From Erysipelotrichaceae bacterium (GTDB lineage Bacteria > Bacillota_I > Bacilli_A > Erysipelotrichales > Coprobacillaceae): a stretch of DNA of 32,000 nt. Location: contig JAQVDW010000008.1 of NCBI GenBank assembly GCA_028698185.1, forward strand, positions 30,001 through 62,000, written 5' to 3'. Numbering within the stretch: position 1 is the stretch's first letter; each line of letters opens with the position of its first letter. The notes below the pieces were generated by a model. The model was not told where the DNA came from, ran no database searches, and worked only from the letters and a program-made list of their open reading frames with translations. Below are positions 19,351 to 29,731 of this stretch, piece after piece. The translations under genes were made by a program, and so were the position numbers.

Positions 19351-20091
19351 ATGCAAAGGTATTTTGTAAGGGAAGATTTGCAACAGGGGCAACGGCTCTG
19401 TTTAGATAAGGACGATTATTTTCATCTAAAAAAAGTGATGCGTCATAAAAACAATGACCAGGTTGTCGTGATCGACAGCAAGGGCAGCAATTTTTTGACG
19501 GTGATTGAAGATATCGACAACAATGTTTTGAAAACGATGGAAGAAATTGAAAATGACAGCGAGCTAGATGTCAAGGTCACCCTGATCTATGCCCTGGCCA
19601 AGGGCGAGAAGTTCGATCTTGTCTTGCAAAAGGCGACAGAACTTGGCGTTAGCCGGATCGTGCCCTTGATTACTTCAAGGTGCGTGGTGCGCCTGGACAA
19701 GGACAAGTTCAACAAAAAACGGGAACGTTATGAAAAGATCCTCAAAGAAGCCAGCGAACAGTCGCACCGGAATCTAATCCCGGTCCTCGACGATCTGATC
19801 ACAGTCGAGCAGGTCAAACAATACCAGGGTGATTACAATGTGGTTGCCTATGAACAGACGGCCAAAGACAAGGTCCATGGCGGTTTCAAGGAAGTGTTGG
19901 AAAATGTGGAACCAGGACAGACAATCAATGTGATCGTCGGGTCCGAGGGAGGATTTTCCCAGGCTGAGGTCGACTATTTCAACCACAACAGCTACAACAA
20001 TATCTCGCTTGGCAAGCGTATCCTAAGATCCGAGACAGCGCCCCTTTATATCCTTAGCGCCATCGGCCTGTTTCGCGAGGTGGTAAGATGA
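19351..20091 (+). CDS. rsmE: 16S rRNA (uracil1498-N3)-methyltransferase RsmE
   Basis: MQRYFV N-terminus and the SPOUT-class motif VGSEGGFSQAE..LGKRILRSETA. GAGGTG lies 5 nt upstream of ATG 19351. Confidence 0.85.
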   Translation: MQRYFVREDLQQGQRLCLDKDDYFHLKKVMRHKNNDQVVVIDSKGSNFLTVIEDIDNNVLKTMEEIENDSELDVKVTLIYALAKGEKFDLVLQKATELGVSRIVPLITSRCVVRLDKDKFNKKRERYEKILKEASEQSHRNLIPVLDDLITVEQVKQYQGDYNVVAYEQTAKDKVHGGFKEVLENVEPGQTINVIVGSEGGFSQAEVDYFNHNSYNNISLGKRILRSETAPLYILSAIGLFREVVR

Positions 20092-20849
20092 TCATTGAGC
20101 TTCTAAACCACTATGCCCGCAGCCATGATTTTACCAAGTCCCAGCTGCACGGAGCGTATCGAAAGAAGCGACAGCTGCTCAAGGATTATGGTTTTGACTT
20201 CAAAATCAAAAACAGCTTTGATCTCTATACCTTTGAGATAATATCTCGCGGTTTTGAAAACGAACAAGCGATAAATGACGCCATCAACCTGCTCAAAAAC
20301 CAGAATGAGGACGTCCTGCGCCATTTGAATTATCAAGAACGCCAGCGTTTTTTTCATCAGGAAATCGGCCGTATTGTCGAAAACCTCCCTTGTTTTAGCT
20401 ATGGGTGCGACATCTACATTCCTTATTACAACCGCAAAGTCAACGAGTACATTGTGAGTGACTACGAAGCCCTGGGCTTGAAAAAATATCAGCTGATCCT
20501 AAAAAACCCGGACCGCAACCAACTGGATATTTTCAAACATTACGGGTTGGCGCCATATGCCGGTGATTTTTGCGACCTGGAGCGATTAGGTGAAAATGAT
20601 GGTAGGGTTGCCTTCTATTCCCGGGAGTTCAATTTGATCTATTTCATCTCGAAAGAAGACCTTCAAATCCAGGAACTCGTCCTCAAGGACAAGTGGTTTA
20701 AAGGCGATTATACAAGAGAACAGATCGAAACATTGGCAGGAATGATCATTAGTGATGAGGATGATATCCTTATCTACGATTATCTAGCTCAGGAAAATCT
20801 TTTGAGCGACAAATTTATCAAGAAAACGGAGAAAAAATGGAGAAAGTAA
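20088..20849 (+). CDS. Hypothetical protein (253 aa), no domain recognised
   Basis: A long ORF with host-like composition. Its start overlaps the rsmE stop (ATGA) and its end overlaps the mtaB start by 13 nt. I saw no recognisable motif. Confidence 0.6.
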   Translation: MIIELLNHYARSHDFTKSQLHGAYRKKRQLLKDYGFDFKIKNSFDLYTFEIISRGFENEQAINDAINLLKNQNEDVLRHLNYQERQRFFHQEIGRIVENLPCFSYGCDIYIPYYNRKVNEYIVSDYEALGLKKYQLILKNPDRNQLDIFKHYGLAPYAGDFCDLERLGENDGRVAFYSREFNLIYFISKEDLQIQELVLKDKWFKGDYTREQIETLAGMIISDEDDILIYDYLAQENLLSDKFIKKTEKKWRK

Positions 20850-23616: not shown

Positions 23617-23647
23617 AAAACCGCACCCGTAAAAGGCGCGGTTTTTT
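23615..23647. terminator. Bidirectional intrinsic terminator between murE and the PRD gene
   Basis: A6-CCGCACC, loop CGTAAAA, GGCGCGG-T6. The stem has one mismatch. Confidence 0.65.
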
Positions 23648-24320
23648 ACTTCTGTTTGGTCACGACGACAAAGTGCAGTGCCAAAAAGGCAACTTCATCA
23701 TCATTGAATTCCATATCGATATCGTCCTTGATAACATCGCGCAGTTCTGCGGCCAGGTTGAACTCTCTCATATGCCGTTGTTTGATCTGGGCAGTCAGAG
23801 GGTTGGTCAATTGGCGGTTCTCTTGCAGACGCTCAAGGGCGGGTTCCAAGTGCAATCCGATTGAGACGATGAATTTCTGTTTGTTGCTGAAATCCACGTC
23901 GTATTTTTCTTTGATTCTAGTTAAAGCTGTTTTTATGTAAGTGTATGTTTGATCATCAAGCAAGTCAATTCCGGTTGTTATTTCCAAATCCAAAGCGTTG
24001 GTTTTTCTCAAATACATGGTCACCAATGATATCTCGTTTTCCGGGAACTCGATTGCATACTGGCTGGCGATTGAATCGCAGATATCCTTGGCTACCGGAT
24101 ACAGTTCATCTTCTTGATATTCGAGAACTTTCGCTTTTGACAAAGGGATATAGTTCCTGTTTTGAATGCGGATCGTGGTGATGCTTAAATGAGTGGCTAA
24201 ATTTTTCTTGGAATGGCTTGATAAAAAAATGTTGTTTTTTTCGACATTACTTGAAAGAATTTCTTGAACGTTGCTCTTAACTTCATTAAAGGACTCACTT
24301 GTCATAATCTTGGTTGACAT
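23646..24320 (-). CDS. Stand-alone PRD-PRD protein (BglG/LicT-like regulation domains with no CAT or HTH output domain)
   Basis: There are two PRD-like halves. Half 1 contains NLATHLSITTIRIQN and ENEISLVTMYL. Half 2 contains FIVSIGLHLEPALERL and DEVAFLALHFVV. GGAGG lies upstream of the ATG. At 224 aa it is roughly LicT without its ~55-aa RNA-binding domain. Confidence 0.7.
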   Translation of the reverse strand: MSTKIMTSESFNEVKSNVQEILSSNVEKNNIFLSSHSKKNLATHLSITTIRIQNRNYIPLSKAKVLEYQEDELYPVAKDICDSIASQYAIEFPENEISLVTMYLRKTNALDLEITTGIDLLDDQTYTYIKTALTRIKEKYDVDFSNKQKFIVSIGLHLEPALERLQENRQLTNPLTAQIKQRHMREFNLAAELRDVIKDDIDMEFNDDEVAFLALHFVVVTKQK

Positions 24321-24394
24321 TTAATACCTCCAAATTTTTATATAAATCCACTATAATATATTAGTTCATAAAAATAAAGGAAAATTTCAAAATA

Positions 24395-24408
24395 TTTAAG
24401 CGATATCA
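24395..24408 (+). promoter_or_regulatory. cre-like (CcpA) site in the pflB upstream region
   Basis: TTTAAGCGATATCA matches TGWAANCGNTNWCA at 13 of 14 positions; only G2 is replaced by T. Confidence 0.4.
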
Positions 24409-24442
24409 CTGGAAATTATTTAGAAAAAGGTATATAGTGTAT

Positions 24443-24507
24443 GTGCTAGTGGGAAAACAAGTTTCAAAATTTTTTCACAAGGTGGAAAATTCGTGTTAAG
24501 TGCTAGT
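24443..24507 (+). repeat. Direct repeat GTGCTAGT(R3)AAAA, two copies 57 nt apart, in the pflB leader
   Basis: Copy 1 is gtgtatGTGCTAGTgggaaaa (GTGCTAGT at 24443-24450). Copy 2 is gtgttaaGTGCTAGTaaaaa (24500-24507). Confidence 0.5.
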
Positions 24508-24536
24508 AAAAATTAATATGGGGGTATTAAAATTAG

Positions 24537-26600
24537 ATGAATTTCAAAAATGAATGGTCTGGATTTACTGCTGGTAAATGGATTAAAGAAATCGATTTAA
24601 GAGACTTTATCCAAAAGAACTACACTCCTTATGATGGAGATGACAGCTTTTTAGCAGGTCCAACTGAATCAACAACAACATTATGGGATCAAGTAATGGA
24701 GTTGACTAAACAAGAAAGAGCCGCTGGTGGCGTTCTTGATATGGATACTAAAATCGTATCTACTTTGACTAGCCATGGAGCTGGTTACCTTAACAAAGAT
24801 TTAGAAACAATTGTCGGATTCCAAACAGACAAACCTTTCAAACGTTCTTTACAGCCAAACGGTGGTATCCGTATGGCGGTTCAAGCTTGTAGAGACAATG
24901 GTTATGAAGTTGATCCACAAGTTGTGGAAATATTCACTAAATACCGCAAAACACATAATGCTGGGGTATTTGACGTTTATACTGAAGACATGAGAGCTTG
25001 CCGTTCTTCACACATCATCACTGGATTGCCAGATGCTTATGGTCGTGGAAGAATCATCGGTGACTACCGTCGTGTCGCATTATATGGTACCGATCGCCTG
25101 ATCGAAGACAAAAACTGGCAAAAAGATACTACAAGAGTCCGTATGGACCCTGAAAACATCCAATTGCGTGAAGAATTGTCTGAACAAATGCGTGCATTGA
25201 AAGAATTGAAAGAAATGGCTGCTTCTTACGGTTTTGACATTTCAAAACCCGCAAAAGACGTTAAGGAAGCAATCCAATGGTTATACTTCGGATATTTGGC
25301 TGCCGTTAAGGAACAAAACGGTGCTGCAATGTCTTTGGGTAGAACTTCCACTTTCATCGACATCTATGCTCAACGTGACTTGGATAACGGTACTTACACT
25401 GAGGAACAAATCCAAGAATTCATCGACCATTTCATCATGAAATTGCGTCTTGTAAAATTCGCCCGTACTCCTGATTACAACGCAATCTTCGCCGGAGACC
25501 CAACTTGGGTAACTGAATCAATCGGAGGTGTCGGTGTTGATGGACGTCACTTGGTAACAAAATCATCTTTCCGTTACCTGCACACATTGATTAACTTGGG
25601 AACTTCTCCTGAACCAAACTTGACAGTATTATGGTCAACTCGTTTGCCACAAGAATTCAAAAAATTCTGTGCTAAAATCTCAATCGAAACCTCATCTATC
25701 CAATATGAAAATGATGATTTGATGCGCGTTTCTCATGGTGATGACTACGCTATCGCATGTTGCGTATCTTCAATGAGATTAGGAAAAGAAATGCAATTCT
25801 TCGGAGCCCGTGCCAACCTGGCTAAATGTTTGTTATACGCAATCAACGGTGGTGTCGATGAAAAATCCAAAAAACAAGTCGGACCTAAATTCCGTCCTGT
25901 AACTTCAGAATATCTTGACTATGATGATGTAATTGAAAAATATGAGGACATGATGAAATGGTTGGCTGATGTTTATGTCAACTCATTAAACATCATCCAC
26001 TACATGCATGACAAATATGCATACGAAAGAATCCAAATGGCGTTGCATGACCGTGAAGTAAAACGTTACTTCGCAACTGGTATCGCTGGTCTTTCAGTAG
26101 TAGCAGACTCACTTTCAGCAATCAAGTACGCTAAAGTAAAAGTAATCCGCGACGAATCAGGATTAGCTGTTGACTATCAAGTTGAAGGTGACTTCCCAAC
26201 TTACGGAAACGATGATGACCGTGTTGACGAAATCGCCAACTGGTTAGTTCATACTTTCATGGGATATGTAAAAACTCACTTCACATACAGAAATTCAGTA
26301 CCAACTACTTCAATCTTGACAATCACTTCTAATGTCGTATATGGTAACGCAACAGGAAACACTCCTGATGGCCGTAAAGCCGGTGAACCATTCGCGCCAG
26401 GTGCCAACCCAATGCACGGTCGTGACAAATCAGGAGCGGTATCTTCATTGGCTTCAGTTGCCAAATTACCATTCGCTGATGCTCAAGATGGTATTTCAAA
26501 CACTTTCTCAATCATTCCTGGAGCTTTAGGTAAAGATGATCAAGTATTCATGGGTGACCTTGAAGTTGATCTTAATCTTGAAGATTTAGATAACAAATAA
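24537..26600 (+). CDS. pflB: Pyruvate formate-lyase catalytic core (PflB), ending before the glycyl-radical domain
   Basis: The protein is collinear with E. coli PflB from the N-terminus ([29 protein letters not shown]; [22 protein letters not shown]) through the Cys-Cys active site ([11 protein letters not shown]) to [13 protein letters not shown]. It then has a 17-aa unrelated acidic tail ([17 protein letters not shown]) and a stop. No RVSGY motif is present. Confidence 0.85.
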
Positions 26601-26616
26601 GAAAGAAGGTATTAAG

Positions 26617-26832
26617 ATGTCTAAGGAACAAAATATTGACGATTTGGTTAATATGTTGGATTCGATTGCCTCAAAAGGCGCTGGACATATTAATGTGATC
26701 GTTGAAAATCCTGAAGAGGTGGATTTGCAGGATGCCAGCATAACCGAAGGCTGCAACTGCGAAATCGGCGATACTGCCTGCAAAATCCCGAACATGCCGC
26801 TATATGGCGAAGATGGATCGGACAAATATTAG
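26617..26832 (+). CDS. 71-aa paralog of the N-terminal half of the PFL glycyl-radical domain, with a three-Cys acidic tail and no radical glycine
   Basis: GAAGG lies 7 nt upstream of the ATG. By my ungapped hand alignment, 17 of residues 1-35 are identical to the next ORF ([35 protein letters not shown] against [35 protein letters not shown]). The sequence then diverges into [36 protein letters not shown]. Confidence 0.6.
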
Positions 26833-26845
26833 AAGGAGACAAACA

Positions 26846-27085
26846 ATGGCTAACGAACAACAAGTAGACAACCTAGTAAATATGTTGGATGGTTACGTTG
26901 AACAAGGTGGACATCACTTGAACGTCAACGTATTCAACCGTGAAACATTATTGGATGCCCAAGCTCATCCGGAAAAATACCCACAATTAACTGTGCGTGT
27001 CAGTGGATATGCGGTTAACTTTGTCAAACTGACAAAAGAACAACAAAACGACGTAATCTCACGTACTTTCCACGAAGGTATGTAA
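26846..27085 (+). CDS. Free-standing glycyl-radical domain (GrcA/YfiD-like; equivalent to the PflB C-terminus)
   Basis: GAAGGAG lies 7 nt upstream of ATG 26846 and overlaps the previous stop codon. [59 protein letters not shown] is near-identical in pattern to the E. coli PflB C-terminus, including the RVSGYAV radical-glycine loop. Confidence 0.85.
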
Positions 27086-27090
27086 TAGTG

Positions 27091-27122
27091 AAACCTGGAT
27101 CAATGTCCAGGTTTTTCTTTTT
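27091..27122 (+). terminator. Intrinsic terminator of the pfl unit
   Basis: AAACCTGGA, loop TCAATG, TCCAGGTTTTTCTTTTT. Confidence 0.75.
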
Positions 27123-27343
27123 CCTAAATTCCGGGGATTGAGTTTGGGGTCCCAGCGACTTTAAAGCGATATGAAAATAATATTTTAAAAAATATTTTTT
27201 TAAGATATGAAACTCCAGATTCAAGTTGCCCGAGTCCGCTTAATTATATTTCATTTCTCGAATTTGTTATTGATTTTTAAGGGAAAATATATAATAATAT
27301 TCACGTAAAATTATTGATGAGATGAAAAGGAAAGTAAAGTAAA

Positions 27344-27604
27344 ATGAGTTTTTACAACACTAGAAATCGGCTTGGCGAAATAAAGTTCGATTATGAAGAT
27401 GGTTTTGAAAATGAAGATGTTTTAGCTTATGAATTTGGTCTCGAATTGGATGAAAGTGATGAGGAAGAAATATACGATTTTACTAAAATCGTCAAAAGGA
27501 TGTCAGGCGTGGAGTTGTTGGATATTTATCAATACAAGCACGAACTTTCATCTACAGCCAATAATATAATTGTGAATGAAATGGCTCGAAGAAAACTGAT
27601 ATGA
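27344..27604 (+). CDS. Hypothetical acidic 86-aa protein, monocistronic
   Basis: The ORF is bracketed by two intrinsic terminators. It has an acidic N-terminal half (DYEDGFENED..ELDESDEEE) and a basic helical C-terminus. The RBS is weak and distant (AAGG about 13 nt upstream). No family recognised. Confidence 0.5.
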   Translation: MSFYNTRNRLGEIKFDYEDGFENEDVLAYEFGLELDESDEEEIYDFTKIVKRMSGVELLDIYQYKHELSSTANNIIVNEMARRKLI

Positions 27605-27606
27605 TT

Positions 27607-27635
27607 GATGCCGCCTATGGCTGCATCTTTTTTTT
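27607..27635 (+). terminator. Intrinsic terminator after the 86-aa ORF
   Basis: GATGCCGCC, loop TAT, GGCTGCATC (one mismatch), followed by T8. Confidence 0.6.
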
Positions 27636-27676
27636 GAATTTATGATAACGTTTTCAAGGTTTTTATGTTAAAATCT

Positions 27677-27688
27677 AACCTATAGGTT
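27677..27688. promoter_or_regulatory. Perfect 12-bp palindrome AACCTATAGGTT in the regulator leader (candidate operator)
   Basis: Self-complementary 12-mer located between a TTAAAAT -10-like element (27668-27674) and the AGAGGTGAG RBS of the PRD regulator gene. Confidence 0.3.
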
Positions 27689-27706
27689 TTTTAAAGAGGT
27701 GAGACA

Positions 27707-29731
27707 ATGATAATTCAAGACCTTGACAAAAGATGCATCAAAATACTAGAAGTGTTGCTCAATCGCGACAGCAACGTGACATTGCAGGAGATAGCCCTGT
27801 TCAACAACGTCTCCCGCCGGACGATCTATTACGATCTTGAGCGAATCAATGATTTCTTGATTGAAAACAAGTGGGAGAAAATAATCGTCGAGCGGGGCAA
27901 AGGAATCTATCTCCATGCGAACACGCGTCAGGCTTTAAGCCAGGACATGCTTGAGGGATCTAAGAACCCGGCATTCAATCCAAGCGACAGGGTCCGTATA
28001 ATCACTTGTACGATACTCAGACGGGATTCAATCATTCTAATCGAGGATCTGATGGATATCTGCAAAGTCAGCCGGAATACGATCCAATCCGACCTCAAGT
28101 CGGCCCAGGAAAGCCTTGCCAACTACAATCTCGAATTGGAGTTCACCTTGAAAAAGGGATACTACATCAAGGGTAATGTGATTACGAAGCGGGCGGTTTT
28201 TTTCCTGTGCTTTGACCATATCCGCAAGCTTTATCTTTCCGGTGATATCGAACTAAGCCAGCAGGATGTCGTCGATGAATACCAGAAACGGCTCCATTCG
28301 GTCGAAAAGGAACTCAACTACCGTTTTGTTTATGGGGTGTGCTACTCCTTGTCGGTTTTTTTCGCCACTGTCAGCCATCGCAAGGATCCGCTGATATTCG
28401 ACCAGGTTCTGGTGATGAAGATTGTCGAAACGCCAGAATATGGGCTGATTGACAAATATTTCGAGGATTTCTCCTCGTTTGAGAAGGTCTACCTGACCCT
28501 GCATATTCTAGGAAGCCGCCTCCAAAGCCTCAACCTGGATTTCAATGACCAGCTAAATGGCGACATCTACAATCTGGCCTGCGATCTGGTAGAGGAATTC
28601 GAACGGATTGCCAATGTGGATTTCCAAAAACAAAAGGAACTTGAACAGGCCTTGTATTATCATCTTAAAAACAGTATCTACCGCTACCGTTATGGCATAA
28701 TCATCGGCAATCCCTTGCTTGACGATGTCAAAAGGGAGTATGGCTACCTTTTCGATGTGACCAAAAAAGCCACCCAGTTCATGCAAAAGGAACTTTCGCT
28801 GCCCATCCATGATGCGGAAATAGCCTATCTGACCCTTCACTTCGGAGGTGCCTTGAACAGCCAACGCAAGCTTACCAAAAAGAAGAAGCGGATTCTGGTC
28901 ATCTGCCCCAATGGCTTGTCGACAGCAAACATGCTAAAAGCCGAAATATCCTACCTGATCCAGGATGACGCAATAATCGAAATCACAAACAGCGACAACC
29001 TAACGGCCCATCAGAATTCCTATGATGTCGTAATTTCGACCATCGCCCAGGTGGCCGAGAGATTCACGGATTTCATCCTGGTCAATCCGGTCCTGAGCGA
29101 CCTTGACCGGATGGCCATCATGAAAAAAGTTTACGAGATTGACAATCCCCAAAGCGAACTAAATGATCTTGTCAATATAATCAAGCCGTATCTCAAGGAT
29201 GATAGTCTAGGAGCGGTCCGTGATGAGCTGTACCGTTTTTTAAATTACCGCCAGCTCCACCGGTTCAACCTGGAGGAAGATTCCACCACAGCAAGCAGCT
29301 TTCTAGGCCAGCCGGATTTTGTCGCGATCGACAACCGGAACATATCCTGGCAGCAAGCAATCGAGGATACGACTCGAATCTTGGAGAGGAAGAACCATGT
29401 GACCAACCTTTACGCCAAGAACATAGTCCGGCAGTTGTTAAAGTACGGGCCCTACATGTTCATCGCCAATGGGGTGTGCCTGGCCCACTCGAAAATATCC
29501 CATGGTTCATTGAAACTGGGCCTGTCTTTATGCGTCTATCCCCGGGGAGTCGAGTTTGAAAGGGTCAAGACCGCCTATCTGGTGTTCGTCATGAGCGCCC
29601 AGGACCAGACCAGCCATCTAAAAATGCTTTCGGATCTGATTAAACTGTTTGCCCAGGAACAAAACATGGAACAGGTCAGGGATCTCAAAAGTGTCGCTGA
29701 TATCAATGTTTTTTTCGAGAATGCAATCTGA
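27707..29731 (+). CDS. PRD-containing PTS-controlled transcriptional regulator (LicR/MtlR architecture: HTH - PRD - PRD - EIIB-like - EIIA-like)
   Basis: N-terminal winged-helix/HTH (IKILEVLLNRDSNVTLQEIALFNNVSRRTIYYDLERIN). Two PRD regions (one contains AEIAYLTLHFGGAL). An EIIB(Bgl/Gat)-like segment KKRILVICPNGLSTANMLK. A C-terminal EIIA(Mtl/Fru)-like segment GVCLAHSKISHGS. Confidence 0.8.
   Translation: MIIQDLDKRCIKILEVLLNRDSNVTLQEIALFNNVSRRTIYYDLERINDFLIENKWEKIIVERGKGIYLHANTRQALSQDMLEGSKNPAFNPSDRVRIITCTILRRDSIILIEDLMDICKVSRNTIQSDLKSAQESLANYNLELEFTLKKGYYIKGNVITKRAVFFLCFDHIRKLYLSGDIELSQQDVVDEYQKRLHSVEKELNYRFVYGVCYSLSVFFATVSHRKDPLIFDQVLVMKIVETPEYGLIDKYFEDFSSFEKVYLTLHILGSRLQSLNLDFNDQLNGDIYNLACDLVEEFERIANVDFQKQKELEQALYYHLKNSIYRYRYGIIIGNPLLDDVKREYGYLFDVTKKATQFMQKELSLPIHDAEIAYLTLHFGGALNSQRKLTKKKKRILVICPNGLSTANMLKAEISYLIQDDAIIEITNSDNLTAHQNSYDVVISTIAQVAERFTDFILVNPVLSDLDRMAIMKKVYEIDNPQSELNDLVNIIKPYLKDDSLGAVRDELYRFLNYRQLHRFNLEEDSTTASSFLGQPDFVAIDNRNISWQQAIEDTTRILERKNHVTNLYAKNIVRQLLKYGPYMFIANGVCLAHSKISHGSLKLGLSLCVYPRGVEFERVKTAYLVFVMSAQDQTSHLKMLSDLIKLFAQEQNMEQVRDLKSVADINVFFENAI

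Follow-up and report, generated by a model that had tools for sequence, protein, structure and literature searches.

A cysteine-loop small protein encoded between a truncated pyruvate formate-lyase core and its detachable glycyl-radical subunit, a candidate accessory component of the naturally split enzyme

The stretch of DNA analyzed here, called the window throughout, comprises 32,000 nt of contig JAQVDW010000008.1 (positions 30,001 to 62,000) from an Erysipelotrichaceae bacterium. Between window positions 24537 and 27085, three plus-strand genes, each in a different reading frame, form one unit that encodes a pyruvate formate-lyase (PFL) core, a small protein from the second open reading frame (ORF2) and the product of a third, ORF3 (Table 1). 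PFL is the most widespread glycyl radical enzyme and catalyzes a central step in the fermentation of gut anaerobes. Here a natural split separates the core of the enzyme from its detachable radical subunit, GrcA3, since in Pfam the core covers only positions 1-51 of the 106 positions of the Gly_radical model, whereas ORF3 covers positions 50-106 and scores 168.3 bits against the NCBIfam model NF038360 ("autonomous glycyl radical cofactor GrcA3"), above its cutoff of 158. The core possesses the catalytic Cys pair (ACCVS), is 74-82% identical to the cores of other split loci and ends with ALGKDDQV followed by an acidic tail; a tail of the type VF.G[DE][LI][DE].DL.. was found on all split cores examined, whereas full-length PFL lacks a counterpart at this place. 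In the following, we focus on ORF2, which is very probably a functional protein tied to this split PFL.

Table 1 Features of the split PFL operon and modules of ORF2 (window positions)
Feature	Position	Strand	Description
Truncated PFL core	24537..26600	+	687 amino acids (aa); Pfam PFL-like, 736 bits over full length
Acidic C-terminal tail of the core	26544..26597	+	Sits where full-length PFL runs on into the radical domain
ORF2 Shine-Dalgarno-like GAAGG	26605..26609	+	7 nt 5′ of the ORF2 ATG; direct reading
ORF2	26617..26832	+	71 aa, ATG start, TAG stop, isoelectric point 4.05, very acidic; unnamed small-protein family
ORF2 N-module, residues 1-33	26617..26715	+	Helix IDDLVNMLD and strand GHINVIV; BLASTP, hhalign, NF038360, AlphaFold2 (AF2)
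ORF2 polar variable linker, residues 34-45	26716..26751	+	Length differs widely in family alignments; predicted local distance difference test (pLDDT) <50
ORF2 Cys loop, residues 46-60	26752..26796	+	C46-N-C48-EIGDTA-C55-KIPNM
ORF2 acidic C-terminal end and stop codon	26797..26832	+	G-x-D/acidic end kept in the family consensus
ORF3 Shine-Dalgarno AAGGAG	26833..26838	+	Strong; direct reading
ORF3 (GrcA3)	26846..27085	+	79-aa detachable glycyl-radical domain with RVSGYAV
Intrinsic terminator of the core-ORF2-GrcA3 operon	~27090-27125	+	11-bp stem, then T run

The N-terminal module of ORF2 resembles the beginning of its neighbor ORF3, with 17 identities and 22 positives over 33 residues without gaps in BLASTP (E 3e-10), a match that spans DLVNMLD and G-x-H-[IL]-N-V-x-V. 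An earlier reading of the DNA from its letters alone, here the sequence-only reading, had counted 17 of 35 residues, or about half, as identical to the start of the radical domain; this was close, except that the homology ends at residue 33. The kinship to the glycyl-radical domain proposed there was upheld by two further comparisons. ORF2 matched NF038360 at model positions 2-33 only (E 2.5e-5, 24.3 bits against the cutoff of 158), and a profile-profile comparison by hhalign of the ORF2 family with the GrcA3 family (23 GrcA3 sequences) gave 97.4% probability and an E value of 1.1e-11 over 35 columns, confined to residues 1-33 of each, while the ORF2 tail could not be aligned to the Gly loop. 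The N-terminal helix and beta10-type strand (D.LV.MLD ... GGH.NV.V) are thus present in ORF2, whereas the radical glycine loop RVxG[FWY] is absent from its 71 residues, as the sequence-only reading had recognized in noting the loss of the radical glycine, and so is the C-terminal helix LT.EQQ.DVI.RTF. A Pfam search of ORF2 returned zero matches. With no Gly loop and scores under the cutoffs, ORF2 is not a member of the Gly_radical or GrcA families.

These comparisons support the view that the N-module derives from the glycyl-radical domain and is homologous to the N-terminus of GrcA3; its counterpart in PFL is presumably the helix and beta10 strand at about residues 680-712 of the E. coli enzyme. 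Since in both proteins only a few residues precede the helix and the genes adjoin, ORF2 most likely originated by tandem duplication of grcA3, after which its C-terminal half was replaced. The two proteins are similar in size, share the same N-terminal start and the operon, and have in common the helix and the beta10-type strand with D15, G22, H24 and N26. ORF2 differs from GrcA3 in lacking the RVSGYAV loop and two helices, one that follows the strand and the C-terminal LTKEQQ..RTF, in having a linker, a Cys loop and an acidic end instead, and in evolving much faster. AF2 modeling of ORF2 alone with 95 homologues yielded a helix at residues 3-19 and low-confidence coil for the rest (pLDDT 55). 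Because one helix at this pLDDT is all that 95 sequences yield, ORF2 probably folds only on a partner, as expected of a barrel fragment. A concatenation of core, ORF2 and GrcA3 modeled as a single sequence was unusable (pLDDT 32), and MAFFT laid unpaired rows of the ORF2 family onto the GrcA3 half of an ORF2-GrcA3 concatenation. The family profile produced only chance helical matches against PDB sequences.

Several lines of evidence from sequence comparison indicate that ORF2 is a translated, selected small protein. The exact protein was found on at least 24 contigs from metagenome-assembled genomes (MAGs) of Erysipelotrichaceae/Coprobacillaceae, and its orthologues in three to four sister species (87%, 83% and 82% identical) all keep the 71 codons in unchanged core-ORF2-GrcA3 synteny. 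The ratio of nonsynonymous to synonymous substitutions (dN/dS; Nei-Gojobori) was 0.25, 0.07 and 0.07 for three pairs, compared with 0.035-0.043 for the core and 0.011-0.078 for GrcA3, and the excess of synonymous changes was significant for the whole of ORF2 (Fisher test, p 1e-12) as well as for the tail alone (p 5e-9). Divided by halves, dN/dS was 0.04-0.14 in the tail versus 0.10-0.40 in the N-terminal half. The sequence-only reading had also considered a decaying duplicate of grcA3, an idea fed by the partial similarity to the adjoining gene and by a shift of codon usage inside ORF2. Because the frame is intact, dN/dS is low and the tail is the more constrained half, and because hundreds of clusters across several bacterial families carry invariant motif residues, such a duplicate, or a functionless spurious ORF, can practically be discarded. 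The codon shift itself is real in the window, where the G+C content at third codon positions (GC3) rises from 0.37 in codons 1-35 to 0.58 in codons 36-71 (0.49 for the whole of ORF2; core 0.33, ORF3 0.38, flanking genes 0.50-0.65). It recurs in the closest relative (L011, 0.29/0.58), but the tails of the sister species L015 and L012 have a GC3 of only 0.31-0.33. The shift is thus lineage-specific drift over only 36 codons, and a foreign origin of the tail was ruled out because these sister species lack it. The low GC3 of core and GrcA3 could stem from a strong codon bias linked to high expression or from a separate origin of these genes.

ORF2 belongs to a new, widespread family of small proteins, and the loci that carry it represent a variant of the PFL spare-part system. 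In a HMMER search against 1.84 billion representatives, a profile of the three orthologues retrieved 57 clusters at 50% identity, nearly all 60-77 aa long and matched over positions 1-60/66; a profile built from 53 of those retrieved about 476 clusters at 90% identity. Among the matches listed (120 of the 476), all were 65-93 aa in length and annotated as "hypothetical protein", and none had a Pfam domain. The named sources were Lachnospiraceae, Clostridium sp., Lacrimispora, Hungatella, Eisenbergiella, Eubacterium and Massilimicrobiota, and additionally Ruminococcus and Coprobacillaceae. No Pfam or NCBIfam model covers the family; NCBIfam yields only the weak matches to positions 2-33 of the GrcA3 model. 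The family is abundant in human gut metagenomes, where the Eubacterium ventriosum copy alone occurs on more than 1000 contigs.

In family alignments of 53 and 95 sequences, with the window protein as the first row, a common architecture is apparent that consists of the N-module, IDDIVAMLD..(F/M)..GGH(M/I)N(V/I).V, a polar linker whose length varies greatly, a Cys loop with the signature [DE]-C-x(4-6, usually containing G-[DN])-[ASP]-C-x-[IV]-P-[TN]-[LM], and an acidic end. Invariant in the 95-sequence alignment are D15, G23, H24, C48, A54, C55 and P58, and nearly invariant are D9, M13, G22, N26 and G51. The window protein carries these marks as D15, G23-H24-x-N26 and C48-EIGDTA-C55-K-I-P58-N59, and it is placed between the truncated pflB core and grcA3. 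Identities across taxa are 28-45% for the ORF2 homologues, compared with 74-82% for the core and 75-87% for GrcA3, which indicates that the family evolves fast outside its motifs.

The three cysteines of the tail, Cys46, Cys48 and Cys55, are located as the sequence-only reading had given them. Its C-x-C-x6-C pattern is present in the window but specific to a clade: Cys46 is confined to a subset (GC..C), so that what the family conserves is a loop with two Cys, C-x(4-6)-[AS]C-x-[IV]-P-[TN]. Hence, of the frame and the three cysteines whose conservation that reading had proposed to check in homologues, the frame is kept, whereas only Cys48 and Cys55 are conserved across the family. The acidic tail had furthermore been taken for a local replacement of the radical segment; by the family comparison, however, the tail with its Cys loop is the most specific signature of the family. 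As a separate observation, the cores of L026, L028, L029, L043 and L047 read TPCGRK where others read TPDGRK, an extra Cys in a conserved loop; this variant is limited to a clade with ORF2 homologues of the three-Cys GC.DC type and may be only phylogenetic. The invariant Ala54-Cys55 also raises the question of a second radical carrier, in which this pair would be a divergent radical-storage loop and receive from the activase an alanyl radical like that of aminoacyl radical enzymes. In a gapless alignment Ala54 does lie opposite Gly54 of ORF3, though in the window only, and there are radical enzymes whose radical position is taken by Ala, Ser or Thr (PMC13450708). Yet the profile alignment ends at residue 33, the tail has no alignable similarity to the Gly loop, the varying linker length means that the positional match is not conserved, some members have Pro at position 54, and aminoacyl radical enzymes stay highly similar to glycyl radical enzymes around the loop. 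We therefore regard a second carrier as very improbable.

The genomic context ties the family to split PFL. Three distant genomes or metagenomes encode a core (680-690 aa), an ORF2-family protein (66-89 aa), GrcA3 (78-81 aa), the activase and sometimes a ferredoxin. A metagenome scan with a subset alignment of the ORF2 family returned about 37 loci with 21 distinct ORF2 sequences in the order core-ORF2-GrcA3, with the activase next in most. A Shine-Dalgarno-like motif precedes the ORF2 homologue in most of the 21 loci, and a strong AGGAGG-like Shine-Dalgarno sequence precedes GrcA3 in all 21. In the reverse test, for which loci were collected starting from GrcA3, a Ruminococcus locus was found to have an ORF2 homologue between core and GrcA3 (hidden Markov model E 3.8e-14). 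Split loci of the core and GrcA3 type occur in Lachnospiraceae, Ruminococcus, Oscillospiraceae, Helcococcus and Coprobacillaceae. One candidate from the genome scan, L016, was a false positive, a chance match to MSKEQNID in a 930-aa membrane protein. Although most split-PFL loci carry the activase gene directly 3′ of GrcA3, none was found anywhere in the window (1-32000), and it must therefore be encoded elsewhere in the genome.

A natural fusion links the Cys loop physically to the core. In Helcococcus ovis (L102:2819-4963) and H. kunzii (L105:1759-3900), the cores are 713-714 aa long, GrcA3 is the next gene, and the acidic tail of the core continues in frame into ...ERVTD(T/D)CVGNAC(S/E)IPTL..., which corresponds to the Cys loop. 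A regular-expression search of all fetched loci recovered this loop from ORF2-family ORFs and the two Helcococcus cores and from nothing else. Since the fusion carries the loop without the helix-strand module, it suggests that the N-module of the free-standing ORF2 is mainly an attachment device.

The natural split core, by residue count against the E. coli sequence, ends near the cut of the engineered E. coli fragment tPFL. In this fragment (E. coli PFL 1-695), binding of the spare part YfiD is no longer detectable and radical installation is lowered, and residues 696-733 were termed a recognition element; oxygen-cleaved E. coli PFL retains these residues, which include the beta10 strand that YfiD duplicates (PMC8683613). 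Residues 696-733 resemble the N-module of ORF2 in being a radical-less beta10 copy that coexists with the spare part's own strand, an equivalence drawn from sequence position only; they differ in being part of the core polypeptide, with no separate gene and no Cys loop. ORF2 is also reminiscent of GrcA/YfiD of E. coli (TIGR04365) and of Y06I of phage T4, which are small, contain the radical-domain beta strand and act on PFL without a functional radical domain (PMC8683613, PMC13450708). However, YfiD bears the radical glycine and restores catalysis, whereas ORF2 cannot carry a glycyl radical.

Functional inference for ORF2 rests on its anatomy, its linkage and the natural fusion. That it is an accessory, third component of naturally split PFL and a member of an undescribed family appears to us about evenly balanced between right and wrong. 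Binding in the radical-domain slot is plausible given the conserved docking residues, and it is the simplest reading because the family shares the key residues D15, G22/G23, H24 and N26 of GrcA3; whether ORF2 docks at or beside this slot is nevertheless a call that could go either way. In the mechanism that we propose, the N-module, as a copy of the GrcA3 helix and beta10 strand, would dock ORF2 at or near the slot of the core and thereby place the C-terminal Cys loop, which would be the functionally essential part, close to the entrance of the active site. ORF2 might hold or shield the vacant slot and aid the ordered loading of GrcA3 and its activation by the activase, the job that residues 696-733 with their duplicate beta10 strand would do for YfiD in oxygen-cleaved E. 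coli PFL. The tethered Cys loop could then act as the effector, by thiol/disulfide redox chemistry, by metal binding or by H-atom donation, and the two invariant cysteines probably sense or control the redox or radical state. The specific role as a helper or placeholder for GrcA3 loading is a possible but tentative assignment.

A module that occupies the same slot as GrcA3 should compete with it, so ORF2 might instead be a radical-less decoy that fills the beta10/radical-domain slot and keeps protomers inactive, either as a negative regulator or as a half-site filler (core2:GrcA3:ORF2). The retention of the conserved docking residues of GrcA3 together with the missing glycine loop is what such a decoy would look like, yet the best-conserved part of ORF2 is the Cys loop and not the slot-filling module, the Helcococcus fusion retains the loop alone on a core that still needs GrcA3, and the duplicate strand of the E. 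coli enzyme aids the binding of the spare part rather than hindering it (PMC8683613). We consider a competitive decoy unlikely; the Helcococcus Cys-loop fusion and the E. coli beta10 precedent argue for a helper role over a pure decoy (PMC8683613).

Another function that comes into question through the E. coli system is that of an activase adaptor, by which ORF2 would recruit or position the PFL-activating enzyme on core-GrcA3, with the Cys loop binding the activase, as an in-trans stand-in for the YfiD N-terminus and PFL residues 696-733. In E. coli, radical installation also depends on the disordered N-terminus of YfiD (PMC8683613), and the 79-aa GrcA3 lacks this region of 60 residues; the position of the activase gene 3′ of GrcA3 in most loci fits as well. 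Against this, no similarity was detected between the ORF2 family and the YfiD N-terminus, and the activase is not nearby in the window or in orphan loci of the family (see below), which leaves the adaptor doubtful. The N-terminal region of YfiD (DDLLNSFWLLD) was likewise rejected as a degenerate ORF2-like module, since hhalign found the canonical strand only, with 9% probability.

Small Cys-containing accessory proteins encoded beside the catalytic subunit are known from other glycyl radical enzymes, namely the gamma subunit of 4-hydroxyphenylacetate decarboxylase (HPAD), the beta and gamma subunits of benzylsuccinate synthase (BSS) and the beta, gamma and delta subunits of (1-methylalkyl)succinate synthase (MASS), some of which touch the glycyl-radical domain, with a proposed part in steering its motion or in guarding the radical (PMC13450708). 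These proteins have folds like that of high-potential iron-sulfur protein (HiPIP) or of rubredoxin, with Fe or Fe-S sites of four ligands, and, unlike ORF2, are unrelated to the radical domain (PMC13450708). In the ORF2 family, a search for a metal-cluster motif of four Cys ligands, or three Cys and one His, found two conserved Cys only, and in this ORF2 appears unlike the Fe-S small subunits; the low-confidence AF2 model (pLDDT 55) has one helix, with the rest unstructured. The comparison bears on the idea that ORF2 is in essence a redox or metal sensor or a radical quencher, in which the enzyme would be switched or protected on the appearance of oxygen by a disulfide, a bound metal or H-atom donation at the C-x(4-6)-C loop. 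Two invariant Cys would suit this, as they lie in a short loop with Gly that would be tethered close to the active site, and so would the protective, radical-reducing role proposed for the Cys-rich small subunits of other glycyl radical enzymes (PMC13450708). However, two conserved Cys are too few for an Fe-S cluster on one chain, the AF2 model shows no knuckle or metal-site fold, and the thiol or metal role is purely motif-based; as the whole function of ORF2, sensing or quenching seems improbable. A more far-reaching proposal, to which we likewise give little weight, is that the family is an obligatory third subunit that gates how the detachable radical subunit is exchanged. In this model the vacant beta10 slot would be held by the module of radical-domain origin, which on one protomer of the dimer could give a half-site enzyme core2:GrcA3:ORF2, and the invariant Cys loop would be a built-in thiol switch that quenches or shields the radical site at oxygen and frees the slot for a fresh activated GrcA3. 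If this holds, the radical enzyme would have its own dedicated device for safety and repair.

Several observations weigh against ORF2 as a slot-docking accessory of split PFL. The Shine-Dalgarno sequence of ORF2 is weaker than that of GrcA3, which points to a sub-stoichiometric protein that may be made in smaller amounts than GrcA3. In a Clostridia MAG (L104:2191-5243), the order is core-activase-GrcA3, with no ORF2-family gene or Cys loop within 5 kb, and both Helcococcus loci lack a separate ORF2 and the helix-strand module; split PFL can therefore do without slot-filling. Orphan copies of the family exist in the Eubacterium ventriosum group (L058-L100, e.g., L083:3995-4204; about 40 contigs), conserved in E. 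ventriosum itself and in two relatives beside proB, proA and a gene for a yitT-like membrane protein, with no PFL, GrcA3 or activase gene within 4 kb, and a literature search found no paper linking E. ventriosum to PFL. As these copies are far from any PFL gene, the family may have a function that is not specific to PFL, or one exerted in trans. Moreover, the expected competition with GrcA3 would be as compatible with a decoy or an inhibitor as with a helper.

In the list of a 2026 review, small subunits appear only with HPAD, BSS and MASS and not with PFL, and spare parts only with formate lyases (PMC13450708). Among the papers searched, none mentions "GrcA3" or the ORF2 family; a Mycoplasma girerdii paper mentions the cofactor by name only, and the Prokaryotic Genome Annotation Pipeline (PGAP) annotates by the name GrcA3. 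Work on how a spare part locates a damaged or truncated core, inserts into it and becomes activated there has so far used engineered E. coli fragments only (PMC8683613). Natural counterparts of these, a truncated core and the minimal spare part GrcA3, are found in many Firmicutes, and to them a third conserved small protein with a duplicate beta10 strand and an invariant Cys loop is added here. Should loading, activation or oxygen protection be under the control of this family, it would offer a tractable natural system for testing the recognition-element model and a new means of engineering radical enzymes that tolerate oxygen or can be switched.

The 32 kb around the operon are ordinary chromosome, with priA, rsmB, rlmN, a PASTA kinase gene, rsgA, a class II ribonucleotide reductase gene, clpB and phosphotransferase system genes. 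An intron or mobile element as the origin of the PFL split was considered and rejected, as an Rfam scan of positions 24000-28000 (E<=1) gave only a chance match to a small nucleolar RNA. Upstream of the pfl operon, a divergent minus-strand gene (23646-24320) encodes a 224-aa protein consisting of PRD domains only, and a plus-strand ORF of 253 aa without a Pfam match lies at 20088-20849. Past the operon terminator, a very acidic 86-aa ORF (27344-27604, plus strand), also without a Pfam match, is kept at the same position in L011 and L015.

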